NCBI GenBank assembly: GCA_040415395.1
Contig: JBEUIR010000001.1
Coordinates: 1-42,001 of the forward strand
Length of the DNA stretch: 42,001 bases
Direction of reading: 5' to 3'
Source: Candidatus Thiothrix namsaraevi
GTDB taxonomy: Bacteria; Pseudomonadota; Gammaproteobacteria; Thiotrichales; Thiotrichaceae
Position numbers and translations under genes: made by a program. The notes beneath the pieces are model-generated. The model saw nothing but the letters and a program-made list of their open reading frames with translations, was not told where the DNA came from and searched no databases. How positions within the stretch are numbered: the stretch's first letter is position 1; each line of letters begins with the position of its first letter. Below are positions 2 to 15,752 of the stretch, in pieces.

Positions 2-103
2 CCCAGCCTGATTAATCGCCCCGGCAAAGGCTACGAAGGTCGGACATTCCTTGCCGCGCAGGATGTGGAAGATGTTATCGCTTACCTGGGGACACTGAAA
101 TGA
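2..103 (+). CDS. soxX: SoxX c-type cytochrome, 3' end (partial, runs off the window start)
   Basis: My translation of frame 2 gives PSLINRPGKGYEGRTFLAAQDVEDVIAYLGTLK*, a typical SoxX C-terminal helix. Its TGA (101-103) overlaps the soxA ATG (ATGA). Confidence 0.75.
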   Translation, partial: PSLINRPGKGYEGRTFLAAQDVEDVIAYLGTLK

Positions 104-864
104 AATACTACCTCGCCCTCAGCTTGCTGATGACCGCTGGGATGGCATGGGCAGATGCCCCCAGTCCTGCCAAGTCCGGTTACGAATTCGTCAAGGAGGA
201 AACCCGTGCCATGCAGGACGACGAATTCCAGAACCCCGGTTTTATTGCGGTGGAAGAAGGGCGTGGATTGTTCAACAGCCAGCCTGCTTCCGGCAAATCC
301 TGCGGCAGTTGCCACGGTGATGACGGTGCCAAGCTGGAGGCAAAAAACTTGGCTCGTTACCCTATCTACGACAAGGAATTGGGCGGTATTGTGCGTCTGG
401 ATGACCGTATCAATGTCTGCCGTGAAAAACAGTCGGGCGAAAAACCGTTCCCGGCGTATTCCAAAGAATTGCTGGCATTGGAAACCTTTGTGCGCCATCT
501 GGCGATTGGTGAGCCAGTCAATGTGCAAACCGACGGCGAAATGGCAGATTTGCTGAAAAAAGGCGAAGATCTGTACAAAATCCGCTTTGGCTTGATTGAT
601 ATGTCGTGCGCCCATTGCCATGACAGCTACCCGGGGCAATTTATTCGCGGGCAGAAAATCAGCGAAGGGCAGGGTAATGGTTTCCCTGCTTACCGGCTGG
701 ATACCGGGGAAATGGCAAACCTTGATTTGCGTATCAAGCAGTGTCTGTTGTTAATGCGGGCAGAACCGTTTGCCCCTGATGCCGAAGAAAGCAAACTGCT
801 GGGCGCTTACATCATGTCGCGTTCCAATGGGCTGAAAATCGAAACGCCAGCAGTGCGGTATTGA
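100..864 (+). CDS. soxA: SoxA, sulfur-oxidation c-type cytochrome (diheme)
   Basis: Sec signal peptide; two CxxCH motifs (CGSCH, CAHCH); GFPAYRL motif; active-site R-x-x-x-C (LRIKQC...RAEP); C-terminal IETPAVR. Confidence 0.92.
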   Translation: MKYYLALSLLMTAGMAWADAPSPAKSGYEFVKEETRAMQDDEFQNPGFIAVEEGRGLFNSQPASGKSCGSCHGDDGAKLEAKNLARYPIYDKELGGIVRLDDRINVCREKQSGEKPFPAYSKELLALETFVRHLAIGEPVNVQTDGEMADLLKKGEDLYKIRFGLIDMSCAHCHDSYPGQFIRGQKISEGQGNGFPAYRLDTGEMANLDLRIKQCLLLMRAEPFAPDAEESKLLGAYIMSRSNGLKIETPAVRY

Positions 865-869
865 TCATT

Positions 870-1190
870 TTAGACTAAATCATGCCCCAGCATATCGCCT
901 TCCGTATTCATGTGGATTTCGCGTACTTGCGGCATCCGCTTGAGGATGTAGGCTGCCATTAGCGTCCCGCTTTTTTGGTTGCCATTGGAAAGTGCGGTCA
1001 AAATCTTGTCTGCCACAATTTGGCAGCGTTGTTCCTGATTGGGGTTGTCTACCCATTTGCGGCTCATTTGATAGCCTTTGCTCATGTCCTGATCCATCTG
1101 TGCGAAAAAGTCTTCGCCTTCCGCCAGCATAAAATCCGGCACGTCAATATCGCGTGTGGTGTCGTTGATTTGTATCCGTAATTGCATCAC
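870..1190 (-). CDS. Hypothetical protein (106 aa), single Cys (QRCQIVADK)
   Basis: The ORF fills the space convergent with soxA and divergent from the next gene, with globular composition. No family recognised with certainty. Confidence 0.75.
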   Translation of the reverse strand: MMQLRIQINDTTRDIDVPDFMLAEGEDFFAQMDQDMSKGYQMSRKWVDNPNQEQRCQIVADKILTALSNGNQKSGTLMAAYILKRMPQVREIHMNTEGDMLGHDLV

Positions 1191-1253
1191 TCTTTACCCT
1201 GTGCTTCTGTCTGGTGGGCAGATTACCCGATTCCGGCTTTGAAAGGAAATGCC

Positions 1254-1922
1254 ATGCTCTTACTGATTAAAAATGTCCTTGATGCGCAACGTGTGAAAGA
1301 AGTGCAGGAATTGCTTGCCACGGGTGAATTCGTGGATGGGCGCTTTTCGGCCGGTATGGAGGCGGCAAAGGTAAAATACAACCAAGAGCTTTCCCCGAAT
1401 AGCCCCTTGCATCGGCGCTTGAACGCGATGGTGATGTCGCCGCTGGTGCAACACCCGGAATATCAGGCGGCGGTGATGCCGTTGCGGGTGGCGACAGCGT
1501 TTTATGCGCGTTATTTGCCAGGGATGACGTATGGTTTCCACGTGGATGATCCGGTCATGGGACCAATGTCAGGGCGTTACCGTACCGATGTGTCCACGAC
1601 GGTGTTTCTTAACGATGATTATGACGGTGGAGAAATCGTTATCCGTACCGCTTATGGGGAAGAAAAAATACGCGGGGAAGCCGGTGATGCGGTGGTGTAT
1701 GATTCTGGCAGTTGGCACAAAGTCGCGGAAGTGACCAAGGGTATCCGTTTGGTAGCGGTGACATGGGCGCAAAGTTTGGTGAAAGACCCGCAGCAACGCG
1801 AGTTGCTCTACCAATTAGCCAAAGCACGTGAAGGCGTCATTGCGAAGTTACCTCAGTCCGAAGAGGCTGCCAGCGTCAGCACCGTGCATATTAATTTGCT
1901 GCGGATGTGGAGTGAAGTGTAG
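1254..1922 (+). CDS. PKHD-type Fe(II)/2-oxoglutarate hydroxylase (PiuC/YbiX family)
   Basis: Motifs FVDGRFSAG..AAKVK.NQEL, YGFHVDD (HxD), RTDVS, YDGGE, H.V.EVTKG.R, WAQSLV, NLLRMWSE. Start moved to ATG 1254 after SD AAGGA. Confidence 0.9.
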   Translation: MLLLIKNVLDAQRVKEVQELLATGEFVDGRFSAGMEAAKVKYNQELSPNSPLHRRLNAMVMSPLVQHPEYQAAVMPLRVATAFYARYLPGMTYGFHVDDPVMGPMSGRYRTDVSTTVFLNDDYDGGEIVIRTAYGEEKIRGEAGDAVVYDSGSWHKVAEVTKGIRLVAVTWAQSLVKDPQQRELLYQLAKAREGVIAKLPQSEEAASVSTVHINLLRMWSEV

Positions 1923-2045
1923 TTACTCATGCAAATTCACCACTAAGCTGAAAATTCCTGTTCTTTATCTGGAATGCAGTTTGCATCCCTCCATTTTTAG
2001 TGGAAAAAGGAGGGATAGTGTAGATGCGACTACAAGGAGTTTTGC

Positions 2046-2927
2046 ATGGGGCAACTGGTAATTAAAAAAGCGTCATGGCTGGAAAGCCATGCCAAGCAGC
2101 TTGTGATTTGGGGGCCGATCGCCGCCGTACAAGCCAGTACCTTGGTCGGTTTGGGATATTTTTCTCAACGTCTTAATGCGTTGGAAGCTAATGAGACACC
2201 GCAGCCACATGCGCCATCTGTCTTGGCAGTCAGTACGTTGCAAGATGTGAAGCCGCCCACGCTGGTGCGAGCCAGTCGTATCCCTCTGCCGCCCCCACCT
2301 GCTGCGCCAGCCGTTGTTAGCATTCCCGTTGCAATGCATAGCCCTGCCGTGATCGACTTCATGCGTGTGGGGCAGGATTTTTCTGCGGTAACAACAACCA
2401 AGCCGGTTGCCGTGAAGAAAAATGTTACGCAAAAAACGGCACAGGTAGCGAAGCCGGTGGTGAAACCGGTTGCAGTTGTTAAATCCAGCGATGAAGAGCG
2501 AGTGGTACAAGCTAACCTTGCAAAAATCCCCAGTAAACCGGAAGCGAATGAGATTGACTTTAAGGTTGCAGATACGAGGGTTATTGATCCTGTGGTGATT
2601 CCTGAGGAAATTCCGCGTGGCAAGCCACTACCTGTCGGTATTGTCGCATGGGTTTATTTGGGTGAGTTACGTGAACAAGGCTGGCATGGGCAGCGTTTAC
2701 ATATTGCGTCAGATAGTGGTTTGCCCGTTGTAGGCGAGCAATACCGTACTCAAAAAATCCACGGTATTTATGATCAGCCTTATGGCAGCCGCACGATGGG
2801 TGGTTTCCAAAAGGGTGATATGGTCAAGATTTTAGACGTGCGCCATGAGGCGAATTTTGGCGTCTGGGCTCAGGTGCGTAAAGTGAGTGCGGTGGGGAAG
2901 CCGGGATGTGTAACGTGTACTCAGTAA
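2046..2927 (+). CDS. Hypothetical membrane-anchored protein with Pro/Val/Lys-rich linker, possible SH3-like C-terminal domain and terminal CxxC
   Basis: SD AAGGAG upstream; N-terminal hydrophobic segment; PLPPPPAAP linker; GFQKGDMVKILDV..VWAQV resembles SH3b; ends in CVTCTQ. Confidence 0.65.
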   Translation: MGQLVIKKASWLESHAKQLVIWGPIAAVQASTLVGLGYFSQRLNALEANETPQPHAPSVLAVSTLQDVKPPTLVRASRIPLPPPPAAPAVVSIPVAMHSPAVIDFMRVGQDFSAVTTTKPVAVKKNVTQKTAQVAKPVVKPVAVVKSSDEERVVQANLAKIPSKPEANEIDFKVADTRVIDPVVIPEEIPRGKPLPVGIVAWVYLGELREQGWHGQRLHIASDSGLPVVGEQYRTQKIHGIYDQPYGSRTMGGFQKGDMVKILDVRHEANFGVWAQVRKVSAVGKPGCVTCTQ

Positions 2928-2951
2928 GAGTGTTGAGCGGTCATTGGCACT

Positions 2952-2978
2952 AAAAAAGCCGCTATGTAGCGGCTTTTT
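2952..2978. terminator. Bidirectional intrinsic terminator
   Basis: AAAAAAGCCGCTA-TG-TAGCGGCTTTTT between convergent genes, with A and T tracts on either side. Confidence 0.85.
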
Positions 2979-2999
2979 ACGCATTTGCAGCTTTGCAGC

Positions 3000-3191
3000 T
3001 TACTTCCAGAAATTCGCTTCTTTGGAGGCAATTTCACGGACTTCGTTAGTCAGTTCTTGGTAACGCTCACGGTAAGCTTTCCACTCACCTACGTAGTATT
3101 CTTCCGCGTTGAATTGACCAGATTGTTCGTATGCGATGAATTTCTTCTGCATTTCCAGCATTTCGCTAATCAGCTCTTGCTTAGTGCTCAT
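3000..3191 (-). CDS. Small helical hypothetical protein (63 aa), last gene of the divergent cluster
   Basis: MSTKQELISEMLEMQKKF...; SD GAGG upstream of ATG 3191; followed by a terminator. Confidence 0.75.
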   Translation of the reverse strand: MSTKQELISEMLEMQKKFIAYEQSGQFNAEEYYVGEWKAYRERYQELTNEVREIASKEANFWK

Positions 3192-3248
3192 GTTCGGTGC
3201 CTCTTCAAATTTAACCAAATCCTGAAAGTAGGATAAACGGATTCAGGT

Positions 3249-3270
3249 AAAAGGGGGAATACCCCCTTTC
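3249..3270 (-). terminator. Hairpin or weak terminator after the DsrC-like gene
   Basis: Minus strand GAAAGGGGG-TATT-CCCCCTTTT with only a 4-U tail. Confidence 0.5.
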
Positions 3271-3279
3271 GGGTAGAAA

Positions 3280-3624
3280 TCAATAGCCGCCTTTGCGGTT
3301 AGTGGCTGGCAGACCTGCGACTTTCAGACCTTGCTTGCTCGGTGCGCGTGGGAACAGGGTGTACATGTCTTTACTGGACAGTTTTTTGTCGCCCCACTGA
3401 TCAGCCATTGCTTTCTGGATAATACGTTCCATTGGCTGTGTGCCGCCGTTGTTGATGTACTGGTCGCGCAGGTAGTTAATGACGTCCCAGTGACGTTCAG
3501 TCAACTCACCAATGCCTTCTTCGGCAGCAATAACTTTAGCAACTTCTTCGTTCCAGTCGTTCAGGTCTACCAAATAACCTGCTTCGGTGGTTTCGATGGT
3601 TGTGCCGTTTACTTCGTAAGCCAT
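3280..3624 (-). CDS. DsrC/TusE-family paralogue lacking all cysteines (RspA-like)
   Basis: GYLVDLNDWNEEVA..IA..EGI.ELTERHWDVINYLR..Y...LFP..P..QG.KVAGLP is the DsrC/TusE fold. The C-terminus is NRKGGY rather than PTGCV. Start ATG 3624 after SD GAGGA. Confidence 0.88.
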   Translation of the reverse strand: MAYEVNGTTIETTEAGYLVDLNDWNEEVAKVIAAEEGIGELTERHWDVINYLRDQYINNGGTQPMERIIQKAMADQWGDKKLSSKDMYTLFPRAPSKQGLKVAGLPATNRKGGY

Positions 3625-3681
3625 GTTTAATTCCTCATGCAAAAGTGAATGTTGCCATTCGATGAAATTCTTGACCGCAAA

Positions 3682-3687
3682 ATTATA
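3682..3687 (-). promoter_or_regulatory. Possible internal -10 box (TATAAT) for the DsrC-like gene
   Basis: Perfect TATAAT on the minus strand about 58 nt upstream of the ATG. No good -35 at 17 bp. Confidence 0.3.
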
Positions 3688-3736
3688 CGAAAAAGCAGTA
3701 AACCGCCCATTCCTCAAAAGGGATACGCCATTCTCG

Positions 3737-3778
3737 CTCCTCTCCACCCTTGAGGGAGAGGGGCTGGGGGTGAGGGGT
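3737..3778 (-). repeat. C-rich REP-like palindromic element, copy 1
   Basis: Minus strand CCCCTCACCCCCAGCCCCTCTCCCTCAAGGGTGGAGAGGAG, beginning 4 nt after the cas6 stop. Confidence 0.7.
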
Positions 3779-3781
3779 TCT

Positions 3782-4471
3782 TTACTCAGTAGGCTTCAAG
3801 GTTTTGATGCCCTTGTGAGGCATAAAAAGCCCGCAACCGAGTTTGCGCCCCTCACCCAGTCCGTATTGCTGCAAGCGGATTGAGGGTTCGCTGTCTAAGT
3901 CCGCAATCATTAAATGACGGGTATGCAATACGCCTGTCGGGGTGAGTAAGGTGTGGCTCTTGCCGCACAGCATTTTTTTTACGTTGAAATCAGCGACCCG
4001 TTTTACTTCTGCCGCCATGCGTTGCAGAAAGCTGTTTTCGTCTTCTGCTGCGTCAGAGAGCACGTAGCGGGCGAATACCACCGAGGTGTGGATGAACGGT
4101 TTTTCCTTCATGTCCCGCAAGCCGACAGCATAGCCATTCACATCCAGTTTTGTACCAGAGAGCGTCTTGGTCTCAGGGATACGGATTTTGGGAATGCGTA
4201 AAAACAGCCGTGTGCGCCGCGAAGGTAGCAGGAATTGATTAGCCGCATCGTCGGGGCGTTCCCAGCCATTGCCACTTTCAGCAACGTGAATGGGGTGGAC
4301 ACCCGCGATGCTTTCATCAGCAAACCAAGGCAGGGCGCGTTGGACAGCTTGTGCCAAATCCCACGCATGATCCAGCGGCAACTGCTTGCAGTCGATGGCG
4401 AAACTAACATCCAGCACCTCATCGGGTGCTTGATAGGGGAGGGTTTTATCCTCGTCTTCCTGCCAAAACAT
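3782..4471 (-). CDS. cas6: Orphan Cas6 RAMP-family endoribonuclease, type I-MYXAN (Cmx6)-like
   Basis: N-terminal D-V-x-F...LPLDHAWDL (P-x-D-H motif); GVHPIH; SRRTRL.LRIP; C-terminal S..LQ..GLGEGRKLGCGLFMPHK Gly-rich loop diagnostic of Cas6. Confidence 0.85.
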   Translation of the reverse strand: MFWQEDEDKTLPYQAPDEVLDVSFAIDCKQLPLDHAWDLAQAVQRALPWFADESIAGVHPIHVAESGNGWERPDDAANQFLLPSRRTRLFLRIPKIRIPETKTLSGTKLDVNGYAVGLRDMKEKPFIHTSVVFARYVLSDAAEDENSFLQRMAAEVKRVADFNVKKMLCGKSHTLLTPTGVLHTRHLMIADLDSEPSIRLQQYGLGEGRKLGCGLFMPHKGIKTLKPTE

Positions 4472-4476
4472 CGTGT

Positions 4477-4674
4477 TTACCTCGCCGACGAAAACGTGAT
4501 TTCCAATTGGTCGTACCAGTCTTCCGGGCGGTCTTTGTAGCCGGGTGGCTCAATGTCAATCTGGAAGAAAATCGCGCCGGTTTCCAAGGCGCGTTGCTGC
4601 ACGATTTGTTTCAGCTCCTCGAAGTTGCTGATGTTGTGACCATCTACCATTAAAATTTGACTTAAACTGAGCAT
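4477..4674 (-). CDS. Small acidic hypothetical protein (65 aa), apparently coupled to cas6
   Basis: Strong SD GAGGAG. Its stop is 5 nt before the cas6 ATG, and the cas6 SD (GAGG) lies in its last codons. Confidence 0.8.
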   Translation of the reverse strand: MLSLSQILMVDGHNISNFEELKQIVQQRALETGAIFFQIDIEPPGYKDRPEDWYDQLEITFSSAR

Positions 4675-4694
4675 ATTCTCTCCTCATGTCTTGT

Positions 4695-4734
4695 TCCCCT
4701 CACCCCTTGCGGGGGAGGGGTTAGGGGTGGTGGG
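4695..4734 (-). repeat. C-rich REP-like palindromic element, copy 2
   Basis: Minus strand CCCACCACCCCTAACCCCTCCCCCGCAAGGGGTGAGGGGA, overlapping the stop of the TauD-like gene, same orientation as copy 1. Confidence 0.7.
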
Positions 4735-5614
4735 TATCCGTGACCCGATCAAAATAACGCCCGCGATACAGCAAGCGGGTTTGTGCTGGGTCTTCACTGT
4801 CTCTAAATGCGGTGCGGCAGTGCAGCACGTTATTGCACAACAAGCCTTCGCCTGCCTGTAATGTGTACCTTATTTTGTAAGGTGAGTCCTGTTGCCATAA
4901 ATTCAATAGGAAATCGGCGGCTTCCCGTGTCATCGGGTCATCGCGCCAGATTACATTGCGCTGGCGGGCGGAATAGCGCATGTGCAAATGCCCCGCAGCG
5001 GTGACGCTAAACACGGGGCCAGATTGTTCGGGGCGAATGATTTCCCCGTTCAAGACATTGGCAGGAATGCTGAAAGCATTCGGATGCATCAGGGCGTGAA
5101 TGTAATCAGGGTTAGCATCGCGTAATAAAATGTAGGCAATTTCATGATCCATCAACCAGCTTTCACCGCCTTCGAGTGCGGGTTGGGCACAATGCAATAA
5201 CATGCCATGAATTTGCTCTTCTGGCAGGTTGTAGTATCCGTCAGTATGCCAACTTAGCGGTTTATTGGTGTAGGGAATGTAATCGTGCTGCCCCGCGTGC
5301 GAGGTAACGTGCAAGGAGGTGAGGCTGTCTGCATCAGCACACAAGTTGTTATCCAGCCGAAACAAACCGACTTTTTGTCCTAAACGATGGACATGGCGTT
5401 TGCTGCGCACGTCGCCTTGCGCAAAATGATACAACGCGAGATTGTGTTCGCGGCAAATGTGCTGGAGTTGCGCTATTTCGGTCTCACTGGGATTTTCGGG
5501 GTCTGCAATTGTGGTGAGCAAGGCGTTCGGCAATAGGGGGTAGGCGGATAATTTTTTGTTGCGCCACGTCTGATACGTCGTTAACGCTTTGATATTAAAG
5601 GGAGAATTATGCAT
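4721..5614 (-). CDS. TauD/TfdA-family Fe(II)/2-oxoglutarate dioxygenase
   Basis: WHTDGYY (HxD), LLHC..PA..GGES.L.D, L..GE.L..NN.LH.R..F (distal His), R.LYRGRY (2OG-binding Arg). Confidence 0.88.
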   Translation of the reverse strand: MHNSPFNIKALTTYQTWRNKKLSAYPLLPNALLTTIADPENPSETEIAQLQHICREHNLALYHFAQGDVRSKRHVHRLGQKVGLFRLDNNLCADADSLTSLHVTSHAGQHDYIPYTNKPLSWHTDGYYNLPEEQIHGMLLHCAQPALEGGESWLMDHEIAYILLRDANPDYIHALMHPNAFSIPANVLNGEIIRPEQSGPVFSVTAAGHLHMRYSARQRNVIWRDDPMTREAADFLLNLWQQDSPYKIRYTLQAGEGLLCNNVLHCRTAFRDSEDPAQTRLLYRGRYFDRVTDTHHP

Positions 5615-5682: not shown

Positions 5683-5935
5683 ATTGTACCGTTGCTAGTG
5701 GACTATTTTTGATTATGTTAAGCGCCTATCTCCTTGGGGATACAGCATGGATTCAGCTAACACCCCATGGGTGAGATTCTATGACGGGAGCATGACGCAT
5801 ACACTTAGCCCACTCGCAAATAGCAGCGAACACAGTTACGTGACCCGTTTTTGATTTGATGTTTCCCTTGGCTTTTAGTTTGTAGAGCAGGTCAAGAGGA
5901 ATCGCCATTGCAATCGTTTTACTGAGGAGGCAGGT

Positions 5936-7231
5936 ATGGCAACGAATAATTATCCAACACCTATGCTGGATGTGCTGGAAGAAGGCCCATGGCCTAGCTT
6001 CATCACTGGTTTCAAGAAACTGCGCGATGAGCATCCAGATGAGCGCATCCGCAATGTGATCAATGGCCTGATGGGTCAGTTGGAGCATTCTTACGAAACC
6101 AAAATGGGCTACTGGAAAGGTGGTACCATTTCTGTCTTCGGTTACGGCGGCGGCATTATCCCGCGCTTCTCTGAAGTCGGTCACATGTTCCCGGAATCCA
6201 AAGAATTCCACACGCTGCGTGTACAGCCGCCTGCTGGCAACTACTACACCACTGATATGCTGCGCCAATTGGCTGATAGCTGGGAAAAGTGGGGTTCTGG
6301 TTTGCAGACCTTCCACGGTCAAACCGGTAACATCATGTTCATCGGTGCGAACAGCGTTAACTTCCAGCACTTCTTTGATGAAATCAACGAATACGGTTGG
6401 GACTTGGGTGGTGCAGGCCCTTGCGTGCGTACCGGTATGTCTTGCGTCGGTGCAGCACGTTGCGAAATGTCTAACTGTAACGAACACGCGATCCATCGCC
6501 GTCTGATGAATAACTTCACGGATGACGTGCATCGCCCGGCTCTGCCTTACAAGTTCAAGTTCAAGGTTTCTGGTTGCCCTAACGATTGCCAGAACGCGAT
6601 TGAGCGTGCGGACTTTGCTGTTATCGGTACTTGGCGTGATGAGATGAAGGTCAACCAAGAAGCCGTTAAAGAAATGATCATGAAAAAAGCCAAGGAAATT
6701 GGCAAAGAAGGTGATCGTTCTGCGGGTCGTCAATACATGTTCGATAACGTGATTAGCCGTTGCCCAACGCAGGCTATCAAGCTGAACGACGACGACACCA
6801 TTACCGTTGATAACAGCAACTGTGTACGTTGTATGCACTGCCTGAACGTTATGCCAAAAGCACTGCAAGTCGGCGACGACAAAGGCGTAACCATCCTGAT
6901 CGGCGGTAAGCGTACCCTGAAAATCGGTGACTTGATGGGTACAGTCGTTATCCCATTCATGAAGCTGGATAACGAAGAAGATTATGAGCGCATTGTTGAG
7001 TTGGCTGCTTCCATCATCGACTTCTGGGCTGAAAATGGTCTGGAACATGAGCGTTGCGGTGAGATGATCGAACGTATCGGTCTGGTGAACTTCTTGGAAG
7101 GCATCGGTATCGACCCGGATCCAAACATGATCAAACAGCCGCGTAACGTTTCTTACGTGCGTACTGATGGTTGGGACGAAGCTGCTGAAGCTTGGTTCAA
7201 CCGCAAGCGTGAAGAAAAAGCAGCGGCGTAA
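5936..7231 (+). CDS. dsrA: Reverse-type dissimilatory sulfite reductase alpha subunit
   Basis: TPMLD.LE.GPWPSF, WKGG...VFGYGGG.I.R, CVG.ARCE, YKFKFKVSGCPNDC, CVRCMHCLN, ER.GE.IER. SD GAGGAGG. Confidence 0.98.
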   Translation: MATNNYPTPMLDVLEEGPWPSFITGFKKLRDEHPDERIRNVINGLMGQLEHSYETKMGYWKGGTISVFGYGGGIIPRFSEVGHMFPESKEFHTLRVQPPAGNYYTTDMLRQLADSWEKWGSGLQTFHGQTGNIMFIGANSVNFQHFFDEINEYGWDLGGAGPCVRTGMSCVGAARCEMSNCNEHAIHRRLMNNFTDDVHRPALPYKFKFKVSGCPNDCQNAIERADFAVIGTWRDEMKVNQEAVKEMIMKKAKEIGKEGDRSAGRQYMFDNVISRCPTQAIKLNDDDTITVDNSNCVRCMHCLNVMPKALQVGDDKGVTILIGGKRTLKIGDLMGTVVIPFMKLDNEEDYERIVELAASIIDFWAENGLEHERCGEMIERIGLVNFLEGIGIDPDPNMIKQPRNVSYVRTDGWDEAAEAWFNRKREEKAAA

Positions 7232-7242
7232 TACCGCACTTC

Positions 7243-7272
7243 CAACTGGGGCAGGCTGGCTTGCCTCAGTTG
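7243..7272 (+). other. Intercistronic stem-loop between dsrA and dsrB (no U tail)
   Basis: CAACTGGGGCAGG-CTGG-CTTGCCTCAGTTG, 13 bp including two G-U pairs. Confidence 0.7.
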
Positions 7273-7318
7273 TCTGATACTTAACGAATTTTGAGTTTAC
7301 TCTGACGGAGGCTTCGCA

Positions 7319-8395
7319 ATGGCCGCACCAGAAATGCGCGATCCTATTGAATCTGGATGCCCGGACGGTTTCCAGTACATGCACCCTGTTATGCGCCGCA
7401 ACTACGGTTTGTGGGCATATCATGAAGACCCACGCCCAGGCGTTTTGGTTCACGTTTCCAAAACTGGCGAAAAGATTTGGACAGTTCGTGCCGGTACTCA
7501 ACGTATCCTCGACGTGTTCACGCTGCGCAAGCTGATGGACATCGGTGATACTTATGGTGATGGTTATGTCCATTTCACTATTCGTTCCAACATCGAATTC
7601 CAGATTGCTGACGGCGCGAAAGTAGAGCCACTGGTAAAAGCATTGGAAGATGCGGGTTTCCCAGTCGGTGGTACTCGTAACTCCGTGACTTCACTGTCTC
7701 ATACTCAAGGCTGGTTGCACTGCGACATTCCGGGTACTGACGCATCCGGTGTGGTTAAATCCATGATGGATGAGTTGCTGCCTGAGTTTAAAGCATGGAA
7801 CATGCCTAACCGCGTTCATATCACCACGTCTTGCTGCCAGATCAACTGCGGCGGTCAAGGTGACATCGCGATCAACGTCCAGCACGTTAAGCCACCAAAA
7901 ATCAACCACTCGCTGGTTGGTAATGTGTGCGAACGTCCTACCGTTGTAGCCCGTTGCCCAGTAGCGGCTATCCGCCCTGCTATGGTTGACGGCAAGCCTT
8001 CCTTGGAAGTTGATGAGAAGAAGTGCATTTGCTGTGGTGCTTGCTATCCGCCATGCCCACCTATGCAAATCAACGACCACCAGTACACCCAATTGGCTAT
8101 CTGGATCGGTGGTAATCACTCCAATGCACGTGGCAAGCCTACTTTCCAACGTTTGGTGGCAGCGGGTATCCCGAACAACCCACCACGTTGGCCTGAAGCG
8201 ACCGCGATCGTTAAGAAGATTCTGGAATGCTACAAAGCAGGTGCGAAAGACTGGGAGCGTATCAACGAGTGGGTTGAGCGCATCGGCTGGCCGCGTTTCT
8301 TTGAAGTGACTGGTTTGCCATTCACGAAGTACCACATCGACAACTGGCGTGGTGCGCGTGCGAACCTGAACTCTTCAACGCACATCCGCTTCTGA
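7319..8395 (+). CDS. dsrB: Reverse-type dissimilatory sulfite reductase beta subunit
   Basis: HTQGWLHCDIP, TSCCQINCGG, CERP...ARCP, CICCGACYPPCP, PNNPPRWPE, ERIGWPRFF. Confidence 0.98.
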   Translation: MAAPEMRDPIESGCPDGFQYMHPVMRRNYGLWAYHEDPRPGVLVHVSKTGEKIWTVRAGTQRILDVFTLRKLMDIGDTYGDGYVHFTIRSNIEFQIADGAKVEPLVKALEDAGFPVGGTRNSVTSLSHTQGWLHCDIPGTDASGVVKSMMDELLPEFKAWNMPNRVHITTSCCQINCGGQGDIAINVQHVKPPKINHSLVGNVCERPTVVARCPVAAIRPAMVDGKPSLEVDEKKCICCGACYPPCPPMQINDHQYTQLAIWIGGNHSNARGKPTFQRLVAAGIPNNPPRWPEATAIVKKILECYKAGAKDWERINEWVERIGWPRFFEVTGLPFTKYHIDNWRGARANLNSSTHIRF

Positions 8396-8423
8396 TCGAC
8401 AACGGTACGAGGAATAGCACGGA

Positions 8424-8816
8424 ATGAAATACACAATTATGGTTAACGAAGGCCCGTATCAGCACCAATCTGCTGATACTGCCTTGCAGTTCACCCGTGC
8501 CGCGCTGGAGAAGGGACACGAGATTTTCCGTGTGTTCTTCTACCACGACGGCGTAAATAACGGCACACGCCTGAGTGTTCCACCGGCTGATGACCGTCTG
8601 ATCCAGAAATCTTGGTCAGAATTGGCTGAAAAGCACGGCTTGGATTTGGTTATCTGTATTGCAGCGGCACAACGCCGTGGCTTGATGGATGCCGATGAAG
8701 CCAAACGTCAAGGTCTGGACGCTAACAACATTGCCCCCGGTTTCCGTATTTCGGGCTTGGGTCAGTTGGTTGAAGGCGGTATCCAGTCTGATCGTTTAGT
8801 CGTGTTTGGCGATTAA
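8424..8816 (+). CDS. dsrE: Sulfurtransferase DsrE (TusD family)
   Basis: EGPY, VFFYHDGV, active Cys in VICIAAAQRRG, GFRISGLGQL. Confidence 0.96.
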   Translation: MKYTIMVNEGPYQHQSADTALQFTRAALEKGHEIFRVFFYHDGVNNGTRLSVPPADDRLIQKSWSELAEKHGLDLVICIAAAQRRGLMDADEAKRQGLDANNIAPGFRISGLGQLVEGGIQSDRLVVFGD

Positions 8817-8829
8817 GGAGCTGAAGAAA

Positions 8830-9234
8830 ATGTCTACAAAGAATTTTTTGTTTGTCAATCGTAAAGCTCCTTACGGCACAGTCTACGCACTGGAGGCGTT
8901 GGAAGTCGTGCTGATTTCCGCTGCGTTTGAGCAAAACGTTAGTTTGGCATTCATCGACGACGGTGTTTACCAAATTACCAAAGGCCAAAACAGCAAAGAA
9001 ACCGGCATGAAGAATTTCTCGCCGACTTTCCGCGCATTGGGTGATTACGACATTACCAAGTTGTATGTCTCTACCGAGTCTTTGGCAGAACGTGGTCTGA
9101 CGGTTGATGACCTGATGGAACTCACTTACGAAGATGCTGACGACGATTACGCTGAAAAGCCTTCCATTATTCTGGTCAACCGCGAGGAAATGACTGCAAT
9201 GATGGCAGAGCAAGAAGTGATTTTGAGCTTCTAA
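8830..9234 (+). CDS. dsrF: DsrF (TusC family)
   Basis: RKAPYGT..A.EALE, F.DDGVYQ..KGQ, ESL.ERGL. ATG 8830 after SD AAGGAG. Confidence 0.95.
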   Translation: MSTKNFLFVNRKAPYGTVYALEALEVVLISAAFEQNVSLAFIDDGVYQITKGQNSKETGMKNFSPTFRALGDYDITKLYVSTESLAERGLTVDDLMELTYEDADDDYAEKPSIILVNREEMTAMMAEQEVILSF

Positions 9235-9248
9235 CGGAGGATTTGAAC

Positions 9249-9554
9249 ATGTCTATGTTACATATTGTCAATAAGTCCCCGTTTGAACGTGTGGCTTTTG
9301 AGAGCTGCTTGGCTCATGCCAAGGCAGGTGATTCGATCCTGATGATTGAAGATGCCGTGGTTGGTGCAGTCGACGGGTCAAGCTTTTCTGGTAAAGTAAA
9401 GGCTGCGATGTCTGATAAGACGGTGTATGTGTTGGGTGCAGACCTAGCGGCACGCGGTTTGGAAGGCAAAGCAATAGACGGGATTGTGAGCGTTGATTAC
9501 GCGGGTTTTGTAGACCTGACGACAAATAACGACACCACCCAAAGCTGGCTGTAA
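9249..9554 (+). CDS. dsrH: DsrH (TusB family)
   Basis: MLHIVNKSPF, SCL, IEDAV, DL.ARG, VDY.GFVDL, QSWL. SD GGAGG. Confidence 0.95.
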   Translation: MSMLHIVNKSPFERVAFESCLAHAKAGDSILMIEDAVVGAVDGSSFSGKVKAAMSDKTVYVLGADLAARGLEGKAIDGIVSVDYAGFVDLTTNNDTTQSWL

Positions 9555-9585
9555 GTTTTAACATTTTTTGACAGGAGGCCACACA

Positions 9586-9921
9586 ATGGCATCAATTAAC
9601 GTTGGCGGTAAAGAGATCGCGCTGGACGAAGAAGGCTATCTGGAAAACCTGAGCGACTGGACTCCAGAAGTGGCAGAAGTTCTGGCTAATGGCGAAGACG
9701 TAACCCTGACTAGCGAACACTGGGAAATCCTGAATTTCCTGCGTGAATACTATGAAGAGTACCAAATTGCTCCAGCAGTGCGCGTTCTGACTAAAGCAGT
9801 TGGTAAGCGTTTGGGTGCTGACAAAGGTAACTCCAAGTATCTGTACAGCCTGTTCCCATACGGCCCTGGCAAGCAAGCTTGTAAATACGGCGGTCTGCCT
9901 AAGCCAACGGGTTGCGTATAA
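9586..9921 (+). CDS. dsrC: Sulfur carrier DsrC with both conserved C-terminal cysteines
   Basis: DEEGYL..L.DW, HWE...FLR.YY, LFPYGPGKQACKYGGLPKPTGCV. SD AGGAGG. Confidence 0.97.
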   Translation: MASINVGGKEIALDEEGYLENLSDWTPEVAEVLANGEDVTLTSEHWEILNFLREYYEEYQIAPAVRVLTKAVGKRLGADKGNSKYLYSLFPYGPGKQACKYGGLPKPTGCV

Positions 9922-9925
9922 TGTC

Positions 9926-9953
9926 GTAGGGGCGGTTCATGAACCGCCCGTAC
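9926..9953. repeat. GTAG-type REP palindrome downstream of dsrC
   Basis: GTAGGGGCGGTTCATGAACCGCCCGTAC, a 28-bp near-perfect palindrome starting with GTAG. Confidence 0.75.
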
Positions 9954-10070
9954 AGAGCATATATATACCGTTGGTGTATGAAAGAGTTGCTCCGGCTCGC
10001 CGGAGCCTCTTCTTAAGCCCTGTTGTTGACAGGTTTTCAGAAGAGAGACTAATGACTTCAGGAGTACGCA

Positions 10071-10841
10071 GTGACATTCGTAAGTATTCTTTACGGACTG
10101 TTGTTTTGGGCGGCAACGTTAATTTTGATTGGCGGTGTGGCTATGAAGGTCCGCCAGTATTGGAACACCCCAGCCCCATTGAAGATTCCGACCACACCCG
10201 CACCGGTTACGCAGGGCGGTGTTGTATGGCGCATGTTCCGTGAAGTGGTGTTTTTTCAGAGTTTGTTCCGTTCCAACAAAACTTTGTGGTTGTTTGCGTT
10301 CCTGTTCCACATTTCCTTGTGGTTGGTGCTGATCCGCCATACCCGTTATTTCATGGAAATGGGGGCAGTGCTAACGTTCCTGCAACCGTTTGGGAAGTAT
10401 GCTGGTTTCACGATGGTGTTGGGTCTGGCAGGTTTGTGGGCGCGTCGCTTCCTTGTGGATCGTGTGCGTTACATTTCCGCGCCTTCTGACCATTTGATGT
10501 TGGCATTGCTGATTGCCATTGGTGGCAGCGGTTTACTAATGACCTTTGTAACCCATACGGATGTCACTCAGGTTAAAGCATTCTTCGGTGGTTTATTGAC
10601 CTTCGGTTTCTTTGGTGACGCAGGCGGCTTGCCAGCCGATCCGATTGTATTGGTGCATTTGTTGTTAGTGGCATTGCTAATGATCATTTTCCCGATCAGT
10701 AAGTTAATGCACGCTCCGGGTATCTTTTTCAGCCCGACTCGTAACCAAGTGGATAACCCGCGTGAAAAACGCCATGTATCCGGCTGGGCATTGGAATTGG
10801 AACGTCAAGGTAAAAACTACCTCGACGAACTGAAGAAATAA
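10071..10841 (+). CDS. dsrM: DsrM, NarI-like membrane b-type cytochrome
   Basis: GTG start; TM helices with His ligands (FH, RH, VH, MH); RVRYIS.PSD; PISKLMHAPGIFFSPTRNQ. Confidence 0.95.
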   Translation: MTFVSILYGLLFWAATLILIGGVAMKVRQYWNTPAPLKIPTTPAPVTQGGVVWRMFREVVFFQSLFRSNKTLWLFAFLFHISLWLVLIRHTRYFMEMGAVLTFLQPFGKYAGFTMVLGLAGLWARRFLVDRVRYISAPSDHLMLALLIAIGGSGLLMTFVTHTDVTQVKAFFGGLLTFGFFGDAGGLPADPIVLVHLLLVALLMIIFPISKLMHAPGIFFSPTRNQVDNPREKRHVSGWALELERQGKNYLDELKK

Positions 10842-10854
10842 TGAGGTAAGCATC

Positions 10855-12411
10855 GTGGCTGATTACGAAGTTCCAAAATTGACGGGTGAAGGGTATTGCG
10901 AGATTCCCGCAGTACGCGAAGGCGTGATGGAGAGCAAAGGCCCTTTCATCGCTAAGCCAGATTTTCAGTCGGCCTTGCATTTTCCGGCGGATTTTGATGC
11001 AGCAGGGTCATTAGTACCCAACTGGAAAGAACGTGCCCTCGACAAAATGGCTGATTTGAAAGGTCGTTACCGTTCGCTGCAAGTGTTCTTGGATATTTGC
11101 GTCAAATGTGGCGCGTGTACTGACAAGTGTCATTACTTCATTGGAACATCTGATGCGAAAAACATGCCCGTGGCGCGTCAGGACTTGTTGCGTAAAGTTT
11201 ATCGCCGTTACTTCACGTTTGCGGGTAAATATTTCCCCAAACTGGTCGGTGCAACTGACCTGACCGAAGAAGTGTTGGCAGACTGGTATAACTATTATCA
11301 CCAGTGTTCTCAGTGCCGTCGTTGTTCCGTGTTTTGCCCTTACGGCATTGATACGGCCGAAATTTCAATGGCAGCGCGTGAAATTCTTGATCATGTTGGT
11401 TACGGTCAAAAGTATTGCAACGAGATTATCGGCAAGGTCTTTAAGATCGGTAATAATCTCGGTCTGCCAGGCCCGGCATTGTTCGATACAGTGGAGGGTT
11501 TGGAAGAAGACGTTGAGATGGATACCGGCATTAAAGTCCGTTTCCCGCTCGACGAAGACGGCGCGGAAGTGTTGTTGGTAACGCCGTCAGCAGACTTCTT
11601 TGCCGAACCGCATATCGACGGTTTGATCGGTTACGCGAAAGTGTTCCACGAAACTGGCGTGACTTGGACGATGAGTACCATTGCGTCAGAAGCGGGTAAC
11701 TTCGGCATGTTCATTGGCTCTTACGAGACCATGCGCAGGGTTTCTTTGCGGGTTCGAGAAGCCGCGATCAAGCACAAAGTTAAGCGCATTGTGTTCGGCG
11801 AATGTGGTCATGCATGGCGGGTAGCTTACAGCTTCCTGAATACCTTGGCTGGGCCGTTTGATTTCTTGGATCAGCGTTACCCTGTGCCACAACACATTCT
11901 GGAGTTCACTTGGAGCCAAATTCAAGCCGGTAACTTGCAGATTGATAAGACTGAGAATGACGACAAAGTCTTGACCTTCCACGACTCGTGCAATGTAGCG
12001 CGTGGTAGCCGCATGGGTGATTACCCCGGTGGTCAGTTCGACATTCCGCGTAACGTTATTCGTGCGGTATGTAACAACTTTGTGGACATGCCAGCCGATA
12101 CCATCCATGACGCGACTTTCTGTTGCGGTGGTGGCGGCGGTTTGCTGACTGATGACTTGATGGAAATCCGTGTGAAAGGTATTCAGCCGCGTGCAGAAGC
12201 CCTCAAGCATGTCACCACGCACAATGGTGTGACGCACATGGCTGCGATTTGCGCGATTTGCAAATCACAATTTACGAAAGTGTTGCCGTATTACGGTTTC
12301 ACGATGGATCAAATTGTTAGTGTTCACCAGTTGGTGAGTAACGCGCTTGTCCTGCAACGGCAAGTGTCCGTGCAGGCACGTCCCGACGATGAAGACGGCG
12401 ACGAAGACTAA
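10855..12411 (+). CDS. dsrK: DsrK, HdrD-like Fe-S catalytic subunit
   Basis: CVKCGACTDKC, CSQCRRCSVFCP, GECGH.WR, HDSCN..R, CCGGGGG, CAIC. Confidence 0.97.
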   Translation: MADYEVPKLTGEGYCEIPAVREGVMESKGPFIAKPDFQSALHFPADFDAAGSLVPNWKERALDKMADLKGRYRSLQVFLDICVKCGACTDKCHYFIGTSDAKNMPVARQDLLRKVYRRYFTFAGKYFPKLVGATDLTEEVLADWYNYYHQCSQCRRCSVFCPYGIDTAEISMAAREILDHVGYGQKYCNEIIGKVFKIGNNLGLPGPALFDTVEGLEEDVEMDTGIKVRFPLDEDGAEVLLVTPSADFFAEPHIDGLIGYAKVFHETGVTWTMSTIASEAGNFGMFIGSYETMRRVSLRVREAAIKHKVKRIVFGECGHAWRVAYSFLNTLAGPFDFLDQRYPVPQHILEFTWSQIQAGNLQIDKTENDDKVLTFHDSCNVARGSRMGDYPGGQFDIPRNVIRAVCNNFVDMPADTIHDATFCCGGGGGLLTDDLMEIRVKGIQPRAEALKHVTTHNGVTHMAAICAICKSQFTKVLPYYGFTMDQIVSVHQLVSNALVLQRQVSVQARPDDEDGDED

Positions 12412-12472
12412 TTACGACATTTATTTCCGCGTGGCATAGCCGCGAGTGGACTGAAATTAACAGGAGATAGGC

Positions 12473-14434
12473 ATGGCAACCGCAGCTCACGACAGCAAGC
12501 TTTTAGGTCAAGGTCACACGTACCGCCGTTTTAAAGATGGCGACAACGAATGGGGCAGTATGCACGACAGTATTTTCGTGCAGGATACAACCCATAAATG
12601 CCCTACCTACATTCACAAAACGCCACCTTGCCAAGGTAGCTGCCCGTCGGGTGAAGACATTCGTGGCTGGTTGCAGATCGTGCGCGGCATTGAAAAGCCC
12701 CCCGTTGGCATGACCATGCAAGAGTATGCATTCCGTCGCTCCACCGATGCTAACCCGTTCCCGTCGATGATGGGTCGTGTTTGCCCGGCTCCTTGTCAAA
12801 CCGGTTGTAACCGTAACGACGTTGACGATTTCGTCGGCATTAATGCGGTCGAGCAATACATCGGCGATAGCGCGATTGCGGCTGGTTTCAAGTTTGATGC
12901 ACCTAGCGAGCTGAGTGGTAAGAAAGTGGCTATCGTTGGCGGTGGGCCAGCGGGTATGGCGGCTGCTTATCAATTACGTCGTATGGGTCATGCGTCTACC
13001 GTGTTTGAACAGCACCCTGAATTGGGCGGCATGATGCGTTACGGTATTCCGGGTTATCGTGTACCACGCGACAAGCTGGGTGCGGAAATGCAACGTATCA
13101 TCGACATGGGTGACATCACGATTAAGTGTAACACCACCGTCGGTAAAGACGTAAGCATCGAGCAACTGGAAAGCGATTTCGACGCAATCCTGTGGACGGT
13201 TGGTTGCTGGAATGGTCGTGGTCTGTTCGTTGATAAGTTTGCAGAAACACCAAACTGCGTGTCTGCGGTTGACTTCCTCGAAGCCTATAATAAAGGCACG
13301 ATGAAATACACCGCACCTCGCGTGGTGTGCGTGGGTGGTGGTGATACCTCCATCGACGTGGTTTCCGTCTCACGCCGTATCGGTACATTGGCGAACTACG
13401 CAGAAAATGCGGAAGATTCCGCGACTGGCAAACTGACTCACGGTGATGTGGGCGAGAAGGCACCTGCAACTGTTACCCTGACTACCTTGTTCCCGCTGGA
13501 TCAAATGACGGCTGCGGAACACGAAGTACAGGACGCGCTGAAAGAAGGCGTGACTATCCTGACGCAAGTGATGCCGAAGGAAATCATTTTCGGTGCTGAC
13601 GGTCGGGCGATTGGTCTGAAGGTTGTCGAGTGCGTGATGAAAGGCAATATGCCGCAAGCGTGCGAAGGTGGCAAAGAAACCATTATCGAAGCGGACATTA
13701 TCGTTTCTGCTATCGGTCAGTTCGGTAAATTGGATGGTATCGAAGCTCTGAACAATGGTCGTAACCAAATCAATGCTGACGCACTGTATCAAGTGCCGGG
13801 CAAGAAAGGTCATTTCGCAGCGGGTGACGCAGTACGTCCTCACTTGTTGACGACGGCTATTGGTCAAGCGTCTATCGCATCTGAAACGATTCATCGTTAC
13901 TTGCTGGCGGAAGAACAAACCAAGCGTCCGAAAGTGGATAAGCACCACTTTGACCTGATGGCAAAACTGCAAGAGGCAGGTTTGGAACCAGCAGGTTATG
14001 AGTCAAGCCGTGCAGAAGACATGCGCGGTACAGACGGTGCGAAATACGCGGTACATAACTACGATGACCGTTCCAAAAACGTGATCGTGCCTTCCAAAGA
14101 TTTGTTCTTGGGACACTTCAATACCGTAGCACGTAACCTGCGTACTGAAGACGTACCAACGGCTGAAGAAGTACTGGGTCACTTTGCAGAGCGTATGAAC
14201 CCATTGCCAGAAGCCGATGCGGTTAACGAAGCCAAGCGTTGCATGAGTTGCGGTATGTGTTTCGAGTGTGACAACTGCGTTATTTACTGCCCGCAAACTG
14301 CCGTTTACCGCGTGCCTAAGAAGCAGGCGACGCTGGGTCGTTATGTTGCAACCGACTACTCCAAATGTATCGGCTGCCATATTTGCGCAGACGTTTGCCC
14401 AACTGGGTACATCGAAATGGGTCTGGGCGAGTAA
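12473..14434 (+). CDS. dsrL: DsrL, NAD(P)H:acceptor oxidoreductase Fe-S flavoprotein
   Basis: PPCQGSCP, GRVCPAPCQ.GCNR, GGGPAG, GGGDT, EAKRCMSCGMCFECDNC, C-terminal ferredoxin CIGCHICADVCP. Confidence 0.96.
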   Translation: MATAAHDSKLLGQGHTYRRFKDGDNEWGSMHDSIFVQDTTHKCPTYIHKTPPCQGSCPSGEDIRGWLQIVRGIEKPPVGMTMQEYAFRRSTDANPFPSMMGRVCPAPCQTGCNRNDVDDFVGINAVEQYIGDSAIAAGFKFDAPSELSGKKVAIVGGGPAGMAAAYQLRRMGHASTVFEQHPELGGMMRYGIPGYRVPRDKLGAEMQRIIDMGDITIKCNTTVGKDVSIEQLESDFDAILWTVGCWNGRGLFVDKFAETPNCVSAVDFLEAYNKGTMKYTAPRVVCVGGGDTSIDVVSVSRRIGTLANYAENAEDSATGKLTHGDVGEKAPATVTLTTLFPLDQMTAAEHEVQDALKEGVTILTQVMPKEIIFGADGRAIGLKVVECVMKGNMPQACEGGKETIIEADIIVSAIGQFGKLDGIEALNNGRNQINADALYQVPGKKGHFAAGDAVRPHLLTTAIGQASIASETIHRYLLAEEQTKRPKVDKHHFDLMAKLQEAGLEPAGYESSRAEDMRGTDGAKYAVHNYDDRSKNVIVPSKDLFLGHFNTVARNLRTEDVPTAEEVLGHFAERMNPLPEADAVNEAKRCMSCGMCFECDNCVIYCPQTAVYRVPKKQATLGRYVATDYSKCIGCHICADVCPTGYIEMGLGE

Positions 14435-14472
14435 TCGTCCTTTCCATGAGTGCAGGCTCGACAGGAATCAGC

Positions 14473-14985
14473 ATGACTAGCAAGTTTTCTAACATCTTTT
14501 TGGCTTCAGTGTTGGCATTAGCCACGCTGTTGTCGGGTTGTGATTCAGCACCAGCAGCGGGGACTAACCTCGAAACAGCTAAGCAAAAAGCTGATCAGTG
14601 TGTTGAACCAACCGACAAAATGCGTAGTAATCACATGAGCATGTTGGATCACCAGCGTGATGCTACGATGATTGAAGGTATTCGTACCAAGCAACACAGC
14701 TTGAACGAGTGCATCAATTGTCACGTTGCGCCGACTAAAGATGACGGTACGCCGTTGCATTACGGTGATGATCAGCATTTTTGTACCACTTGCCATGCGG
14801 CGGTGGGGCAGAAGATTGATTGTTTCCAATGTCATGCTGACCGCCCAGCAGGTGATGAAAATTACCAGCATAAAGTAGGCAGTGCGGATGCACATCACTT
14901 TACCCAAGGTGTTGTCAGTGCTGCTATGCCTACGGCTGCTGAAGTGCAAATGGTGGTTCAACCACAACAAGGAGCTGCGCAATGA
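14473..14985 (+). CDS. dsrJ: DsrJ, triheme c cytochrome (lipoprotein-type signal)
   Basis: CVEP...MR.NHM..L.HQRD; three CxxCH motifs (CINCH, CTTCH, CFQCH); lipobox LSGC. Start is 14473 or possibly 14446. Confidence 0.92.
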   Translation: MTSKFSNIFLASVLALATLLSGCDSAPAAGTNLETAKQKADQCVEPTDKMRSNHMSMLDHQRDATMIEGIRTKQHSLNECINCHVAPTKDDGTPLHYGDDQHFCTTCHAAVGQKIDCFQCHADRPAGDENYQHKVGSADAHHFTQGVVSAAMPTAAEVQMVVQPQQGAAQ

Positions 14986-15734: not shown

Positions 15735-15752
15735 CGGAAAGGACGAACAGCA

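Follow-up and report, generated by a model that had tools for sequence, protein, structure and literature searches.

A widely conserved companion gene set of the oxidative Dsr pathway, with an orphan Cas6, a Cys-less DsrC paralogue and a candidate shared operator

Why would an orphan Cas6 and a DsrC paralogue without Cys lie, with three further genes, head-to-head with the operon for reverse dissimilatory sulfite reductase (reverse Dsr, rDsr)? This question is raised by a 42,001-nt stretch of Candidatus Thiothrix namsaraevi DNA (the window; contig JBEUIR010000001.1, positions 1 to 42,001), in which calling of open reading frames (ORFs) delimits, in this Thiothrix-like genome, a module of five minus-strand genes: dsrQ (4721-5614; 297 amino acids, aa), coding for a TauD/TfdA-superfamily Fe(II)/2-oxoglutarate (2OG) dioxygenase, the gene for P65 (4477-4674), a 65-aa acidic protein without known family or fold, cas6 (3782-4471; 229 aa), an orphan of the type I-B/Myxan (Cmx6) family from a sulfur-oxidiser clade, rspA (3280-3624; 114 aa counted from ATG), an RspA-type DsrC paralogue lacking Cys and ending in RKGGY, and the gene for P63 (3000-3191; 63 aa counted from ATG), which has no known family and likely its own promoter. 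The genes are spaced by 46, 5, 157 and 88 nt, and a divergent region of 321 bp separates position 5614, the outer edge of dsrQ, from the dsrA start (5936), where the partner operon dsrABEFHCMKLJOP begins (5936-16961, plus strand; the name dsrJ rests on position, its product having no Pfam match). The ORFs bear out an earlier note on this DNA that had described five co-oriented genes with these gaps and a divergent region of this length shared with the dsr operon, and the terminator with which it had ended the set was found as an inverted repeat with T runs at 2953-2978 (-20.6 kcal/mol, z -2.1), which closes the module, is common to the convergent gene and is likely a bidirectional, intrinsic terminator. 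As laid out below, the set is real, accessory to oxidative Dsr and conserved very widely, and parts of it are already named in print. We tentatively read it, at somewhat less than even chances, as a companion set of the gammaproteobacterial pathway that is switched on with dsrAB through a palindrome-binding activator and tunes the DsrC sulfur cycle.

The tie to rDsr is seen in one draw of 401 gammaproteobacterial genomes, the searches for DsrA and for PF09559 (the Pfam model of the orphan Cas6) being taken as made on the same draw because they gave the same family tallies, most negative rows being unlisted. DsrA matched 125 and PF09559 126 of these genomes; 120 carried both Cas6 and DsrA and 270 neither, while DsrA came without Cas6 in 5 and Cas6 without DsrA in 6. 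Among the Cas6-only genomes, G296 and G045 hold true loci of clustered regularly interspaced short palindromic repeats (CRISPR) with cas3, in G166, G136 and G285 a contig edge lies on the dsrA side, and G426 has a broken dsrQ and no dsrA match. The latter genome (1.4 Mb; locus L117, C4:25460-25954) keeps cas6, P65, rspA and a gene for a ~230-aa protein described below, while its dsrQ has two stops, possibly reflecting a recent loss of the sulfur pathway. In three of the five DsrA-only genomes dsrA is near a contig end, and another (G235) is a 470-contig draft. When DsrA-positive genomes were reduced to one per family (67 genomes), Cas6 was found in 65, DsrQ in 64, RspA in 60 (scored by a match reaching the model's last position), P65 in 54 and P63 in 45; the searches of DsrA-negative genomes covered only Cas6 and the ~230-aa gene. 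Ten DsrA-positive genomes from other classes yielded DsrQ in eight, P65 in one, RspA in one and P63 in none. Two loci from another class (L152 and L153) have dsrQ opposite dsrA followed by an unknown gene of 74-88 aa, with P65 in L153 and with cas6 and the palindrome absent.

Gene order was compared across 83 loci, a set biased to the best Cas6 matches from which one locus had been dropped for lack of a called cas6 start. A divergent dsrA lies at most 4 kb away in 48 of the 59 loci with enough flank, and P65 (53/72), DsrQ (45/65), RspA (53/76) and P63 (34/73) are often in place near cas6. The exact five-gene order was recovered in at least 16 of 61 loci, a floor since the script missed some loci that show it, and all five genes are kept in order even in two genomes of 1.1 Mb. 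dsrQ, P65 and cas6 travel as a block in four loci, and Cas6 is the most constant neighbour, standing directly opposite dsrA in two genomes; dsrQ is absent from the locus in six Chromatiaceae loci. The clustering is not due to chance, the order recurring in many families. Between P65 and cas6, 27 of 76 loci carry a gene for a ~230-aa helical protein without a Pfam family, which is present in 92 of 400 genomes (91 of these DsrA-positive) and is a sixth member of the module; in the genome of the window (G000; 96.7% complete, 876 contigs) it lies off the window, at a contig end (C205:4103-4747, minus strand, locus L031). The loci show no CRISPR context: array-like repeats or matches to cas1/3/5/7/8 queries were found at 0 of 83, so that the cas3, cas8, cas7, cas5 and array of a type I-B (Myxan) locus are missing here. 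The recurrence of the order across many families, with Cas6 tracking DsrA, supports this part of the earlier note's proposal, namely that the genes are accessory to reverse Dsr, are conserved as a set and include a DsrC without Cys and a Cas6 that has been domesticated. In three small genomes of one family (L117, L119 and L120), cas6 has moved to a place immediately after rnc (RNase III), in a row that includes era, recO and pdxJ, and P65 stays with the ~230-aa gene.

An expectation-maximisation motif search of non-coding DNA uncovered a palindrome, TAYCCC-N4-GGGRTA, ahead of dsrA (75 sequences; log-likelihood 643 versus 73-80 for shuffled sequences) and ahead of P63 (48 sequences; 370 versus 65-74). 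With a matrix to which neither the window nor loci L032-L044 contributed (the Thiothrix loci being held out), the strong operator-like palindrome at 5726-5743, in the dsrQ/dsrA divergent region, ranks first in the 3.3-Mb genome (19.8 bits), followed at ranks 4, 7, 11 and 14 by sites at trpD-like/sel1, P63, rspA and a qmoA-like gene. At a threshold of at least 10 bits, sites occur upstream of P63 in 25 of 54 cases, rspA in 15 of 83, trpD-like genes in 10 of 10 and sel1 in 13 of 14, the last two sets lying outside the training data, and upstream of dsrB (0/67), dsrM (0/47) and cas6 (0/40) in none. The position of the palindrome is also conserved: a TAnnnT box follows the site start by 39 nt in 30 of 44 P63 cases, which puts the centre of the palindrome near -43.5. 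In the dsrA direction a second, weaker site (~5761-5776) lies ~33 bp further on, again about -44 from a predicted -10 box (5800-5805; this centre of ~-43.5 is deduced from the conserved spacing), and such tandem sites, three turns apart and just upstream of the -35, would suit a cooperative activator. On the minus strand, operator-like sites with predicted -10 boxes mark a candidate internal rspA promoter (3682-3726; site 3709-3726, box 3687-3682) and the region ahead of the P63 gene (3230-3276; site 3259-3276, box 3235-3230), the latter site overlapping a terminator-like hairpin in the window. In five other genomes (16 loci, with genes named by sequence inspection), matches precede dsrA, trpD-like/sel1, aprB/soeA-like, tusA-like and Alvin_2107-like genes as well as several unrelated genes.

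The 10 loci examined from other classes all lack the palindrome before dsrA. The matches in a 1.1-Mb genome fall within genes and look like chance, and a role of the palindrome as an RNA hairpin was discarded, its arms being fixed in sequence, often mispaired and upstream of the promoter. Elsewhere in G000 the palindrome is found between a TrpD/YbiB-like gene, whose YbiB-like product is a candidate DNA binder, and a Sel1-repeat gene (C139:608), and before the qmoA-like gene (C24:15002). Two further operator-like sites, one 59 nt before a 249-aa LuxR-like gene (C651:1147) and one near a LytTR-like response regulator (C136:212-1599), both genes named by eye, may point to a regulator or be chance.

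The palindrome is likely an activator binding site. LuxR-family boxes centre near -43.5, and the palindrome shares this position with activator sites of the Lux/tra-box type. It also has the C-tract/G-tract pseudopalindrome of the G-tract operators of CsoR, RcnR and CstR, as CsoR sites are depicted in a passage of PMC3902906. Unlike CsoR-type operators, however, it lies upstream of the -35, which suits an activator, and no CsoR/RcnR-family (PF02583) gene was found in G000 at the completeness given above. The footprinted PSOS-1 and PSOS-2 motifs of green sulfur bacteria likewise precede dsr and sox genes, but they overlap the -6 box or +1 and are read as repressor sites, a likeness drawn by description only from part of bioRxiv 10.1101/172254. 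Sharing of a likely activator site suggests that the genes probably form several co-regulated units rather than one operon. The single operon of the earlier note is also made doubtful by the operator and -10 elements ahead of rspA and P63 and by the separation of the genes in many genomes. In several studies, RNA libraries made from relatives yield contigs over the module, from which strand, ends and levels cannot be read; one runs from the 3' end of dsrQ to the 5' end of rspA, but a contig does not demonstrate a single transcript. In four runs such contigs give almost no cover across 1238-3096, a weak hint only.

RspA of the window matches the DsrC family (PF04358, E 8e-36) and has no Cys in the whole protein, whereas the canonical DsrC of the partner operon (~9589-9921) has both. 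The paralogue lacks the C-terminal CysB-X10-CysA of a sulfur-carrying DsrC as well as the single CysA that TusE keeps, and so falls into the RspA class, the name used in passages of PMC9371685 and PMC8477390 for DsrC-like proteins without CysA. All 84 RspA proteins from the fetched loci end in RKGGY, and 2 of the 84 have a Cys within the last 20 residues. The DsrC motifs P-x-x-R-x-x-x-K and KQ are retained, and the net charge of the C-terminal half is equal in RspA and DsrC. The published class, introduced in a 2014 review as cited in those parts of PMC8477390 and PMC9371685, shares the DsrC fold and the missing active-site CysA and has been proposed to be regulatory; the clade of the window differs from it, as there described, in lacking both Cys, in its invariant RKGGY tail and in travelling with Cas6. 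A passage of PMC9371685 reports that in an alphaproteobacterium dsrQ, genes for proteins of 66 and 89 aa and an rspA lie in a row, their products all being detected by proteomics; RspA on thiosulfate was ~5.5 log2 above its level on methane, and it was equally high on ethanol. RKGGY-type RspA is also borne by three viral contigs (L189, L190 and L191), which suggests that some viral 'dsrC' genes are the RspA paralogue; the viral dsrC genes without one Cys in a passage of PMC4164917 may be another group. On L190 (220 kb), rspA stands directly behind a canonical two-Cys dsrC and ahead of a PstS-like gene.

The Cas6 protein matches PF09559 (E 1.7e-53) and falls just below the cut-off of TIGR02807 (98.1 bits versus 98.85), with the double RNA-recognition motif (RRM) and C-terminal G-rich loop of the Cas6/Cmx6 fold; its closest named relatives are from Thiothrix. 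An orphan in Thiobacillus denitrificans is reportedly mentioned in the notes to TIGR02807. A predicted model (predicted local distance difference test, pLDDT, 85, low at the N-terminus and the 63-73 loop) matches best the Cas6 of a type I-B CRISPR-associated transposon (8fcu; template-modelling (TM) score 0.76, E 2e-16). Across 115 sequences the protein keeps D34-H35, R92, R209 and the G-loop as in three CRISPR-linked relatives, the first-helix H35, which is likely catalytic by analogy with other Cas6 proteins, being present in 98% of the sequences and in all three of these relatives. Invariant in the clade alone are W3, H59, H62, N68-G69-W70, R86 and H219-K220. In a tree of 41 rows the three CRISPR-linked proteins are split from the 38 others by a long branch (support 100/99), three outgroup rows being too few to date or orient a transfer, and Cas6 and DsrA distances correlate over 68 loci (r 0.62), which fits shared descent without proving co-evolution. 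Compared with Cmx6 (TIGR02807, PF09559; PDB 8fcj/8fcu), with which it shares the fold, the D-H motif and the G-rich loop, the orphan Cas6 has neither array nor cas genes nearby, is ~30 aa longer, carries new invariant motifs, is less basic, forms its own branch and is tied to dsrA. It is nearly always present in single copy; no full-length Cas6 of the orphan clade was found in the phage collections searched, and no cas6 fusions were seen, the long open frames around cas6 not being fusions. Two G/C-rich hairpins in the intergenic gaps flanking P65 and cas6 (3735-3782 and 4690-4740) were considered as Cas6 targets and set aside, as they are genome-wide repeats resembling repetitive extragenic palindromes (28 and 40 blastn lines in this genome) that most relatives lack.

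DsrQ matches TauD (PF02668, E 3.6e-19), and its H123-x-D125...H265 triad and 2OG-binding Arg residues (R267/R280) are intact and invariant in 50 of 50 aligned sequences, as in Fe(II)/2OG dioxygenases of the TauD/TfdA type. Its best profile and structure-sequence matches, none of which reaches its cut-off, are to hydroxylases, namely TmpA and the dioxygenases of trimethyllysine and butyrobetaine, and no taurine-dioxygenase model was among its NCBIfam hits. The gene corresponds in family and in its divergent place upstream of dsrA to dsrQ, the name given by Lenk et al. 2012 to a tauD-like gene opposite dsrA according to passages of PMC7596348 and PMC9371685; according to the former, most sulfur oxidisers that are aerobic chemotrophs have it, and a sulfonate role is speculation, and these passages deal with that single gene, leaving Cas6, P65, P63 and the operator unmentioned. 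A second dsrQ-like gene occurs in 15 of 80 genomes, the G067 copy lying ~10 kb from an aprB/soeA-like operator site. The two small proteins have no Pfam or NCBIfam family and no PDB or Pfam relatives and are unrelated to each other by profile comparison. P65 usually adjoins cas6 or the ~230-aa gene; Foldseek gave no match at E 0.001 and VIA a best Z of 4.9, which does not by itself show a new fold, and none of six longer fusion candidates scored, which is weak evidence. The atlas matches of P63 are unnamed clusters.

These features would fit together as follows. Activation through the palindrome, which is fairly likely, would use it as a class-II-type site, probably serving three units (dsrQ-P65-cas6, rspA and P63) besides dsrAB. 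RspA, with a DsrC fold and basic surface and a Tyr at the position of the sulfur-carrying Cys, may dock at DsrC sites on DsrAB, DsrK or DsrEFH and, being unable to carry sulfur, act there as a plug or decoy, a plausible role given that DsrC docks on DsrAB. Cas6 may have kept the ability to bind an RNA hairpin, perhaps also to cut it, and so modulate how much is produced from sulfur-oxidation transcripts, P65 being its likely partner; because no RNA target emerged, we rate such an RNA-level tuner about even with a scaffold. DsrQ is, as a best guess, an oxygen-using hydroxylase that would modify a small molecule or a side chain with O2 and 2OG, linking the module to oxygen.

Several observations weigh against this picture. 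The co-occurrence figures are descriptions rather than tests, since related genomes are not independent; the complete, DsrA-positive genome G420 has no match for Cas6, DsrQ or P65 and looks like a true lack of Cas6, and 0 of 37 DsrA-positive genomes from other classes of the phylum have Cas6, so that rDsr can exist without it. Within the class the genes are separable, Cas6 lying apart from P65 and RspA in several genomes. As to the palindrome, the count of sites of at least 10 bits upstream of dsrA (72 of 83) is partly circular, matches of at least 11 bits number 27 genome-wide versus 25-33 in shuffles and thus show no excess, and it is absent before dsrA in G185 and G330 (1.1 Mb each) and in G033, all of which have Cas6, P65 and RspA. 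The core of Cas6 is less basic (median +1 versus +5 to +8 in the three CRISPR-linked proteins) and has acquired a new invariant N-terminal Trp and loop. No conserved intergenic hairpin was found as its RNA target, and 13 coding regions revealed no run of fixed synonymous codons or hidden RNA element.

Alternatively, Cas6 may have dropped its RNA work and serve as a scaffold for proteins or as a maturation factor that would hold, say, P65, the ~230-aa protein or RspA during assembly of DsrAB or DsrMK. This is unlikely, yet deserves serious weight: the clade-specific invariant residues (W3, H59, H62, N68-G69-W70 and H219-K220), the lower net charge, the missing RNA target and the low pLDDT of the N-terminus and 63-73 loop, as is common in docking segments, all favour it, against the retention of H35, R92, R209 and the entire G-loop as in CRISPR-linked Cmx6 and the fact that the partners are not always adjacent. 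That the orphan Cas6 instead remains a CRISPR enzyme, processing arrays elsewhere in the genome, is hardly credible: G000 does hold three short arrays and cas1 and cas3 genes on other contigs, but its arrays are accompanied by cas genes of their own, on one array contig an ORF with a match to Cas1 supplies a Cas6-like G-loop as well, and the orphan tracks dsrA, is nearly always single-copy and is separated by a long branch from CRISPR-linked Cmx6. Contig C327 has a short CRISPR array and, next to it, a long ORF that opens with a glycine loop of the Cas6 type and matches Cas1 farther along; this ORF is probably a Cas6-reverse transcriptase-Cas1 fusion truncated at the contig end. A protein of the module, most plausibly Cas6, might itself bind the palindrome, as both are met in Gammaproteobacteria only and G000 yielded no gene of the CsoR/RcnR family, whose operators the motif resembles. 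We consider this very improbable, given that two small genomes keep Cas6 without the motif, that pairing of the arms as RNA fails at 35 of 162 positions in P63 sites and that Cas6 proteins are known as RNA binders; RspA and P65 drop out as operator-binding proteins, since motif-bearing single-contig genomes lack RspA (G036 and G400) or P65 (G400).

The genes might also have separate jobs and cluster only through a shared sulfur regulon, with DsrQ freeing sulfite from sulfonates, a speculation reported in a passage of PMC7596348, and the others serving unrelated roles. The operator and -10 elements of rspA and P63, the splitting of the genes in many genomes and the presence of DsrQ without Cas6 in 8 of 10 genomes from other classes are in keeping with this, while the likeness of DsrQ to hydroxylase models (all below cut-off), the unmatched taurine-dioxygenase model and the joint movement of the dsrQ-P65-cas6 block in four loci make it a rather unlikely account. 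Less probable still is an oxygen sensor or shield in which DsrQ and two further 2OG oxygenases of the wider island hydroxylate a protein, for example the Arg-Lys tail of RspA, and so gate the O2-sensitive DsrAB. The tail is indeed invariant, the island repeatedly carries a PKHD-type oxygenase as well as another of the 2OG-Fe(II) kind, and the lack of dsrQ from six Chromatiaceae loci matches its occurrence in aerobic chemotrophs as reported in PMC7596348, but RspA and Cas6 persist at loci without dsrQ. We keep to the preferred reading, a companion set co-activated with dsrAB, at the strength given at the outset.

Next to the module there is often a wider island with genes for a PKHD-type hydroxylase, a 106-aa protein, a second 2OG oxygenase, Sfum_1244-family, Alvin_2107-family, TrpD/YbiB-like and Sel1 proteins. 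In the window (100-2927) it is represented by soxA (100-864), a conserved 106-aa unknown (870-1190, minus strand) and the PKHD-type hydroxylase (1254-1922), genes that accompany the module at roughly every second locus, whereas a Pro-rich ORF of 293 aa (2046-2927) was met in close relatives only.

How much of this is new? The earlier note had called the system undescribed, which holds for part of the set but not for dsrQ, including its place opposite dsrA, or for the RspA class, both of which are already named in print; new here is the palindrome. In the literature searched (mostly titles, starts of abstracts and passages) we found no link of Cas6 to dsrAB, to the RKGGY tail or to the palindrome, and there is a fair chance that the set is a new kind of control system. 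A bolder proposal, possible but doubtful as a whole, is that a single domestication event, early among the sulfur oxidisers of the Gammaproteobacteria, recruited an RNA-processing enzyme from CRISPR, which with a Cys-less DsrC decoy and an oxygenase now provides post-transcriptional control of stored-sulfur oxidation, under an undescribed master activator whose operator would be found at apr, soe, qmo and tusA genes too.

It is mainly through reverse Dsr that sulfur-oxidising Gammaproteobacteria, from the Thiothrix of sludge to purple sulfur bacteria, oxidise their stored sulfur, and genes kept in 45 to 65 of 67 family representatives, even in genomes of 1.1 Mb, are likely unrecognised parts of this route; the companion genes and their shared palindrome suggest that the pathway as given in textbooks probably lacks both components and a master switch. 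If a Cas6 has become fixed in energy metabolism, it would clearly exemplify a defence protein turned housekeeping, and the palindrome, as a motif for regulon mapping, makes the question of what turns dsrAB on directly testable.

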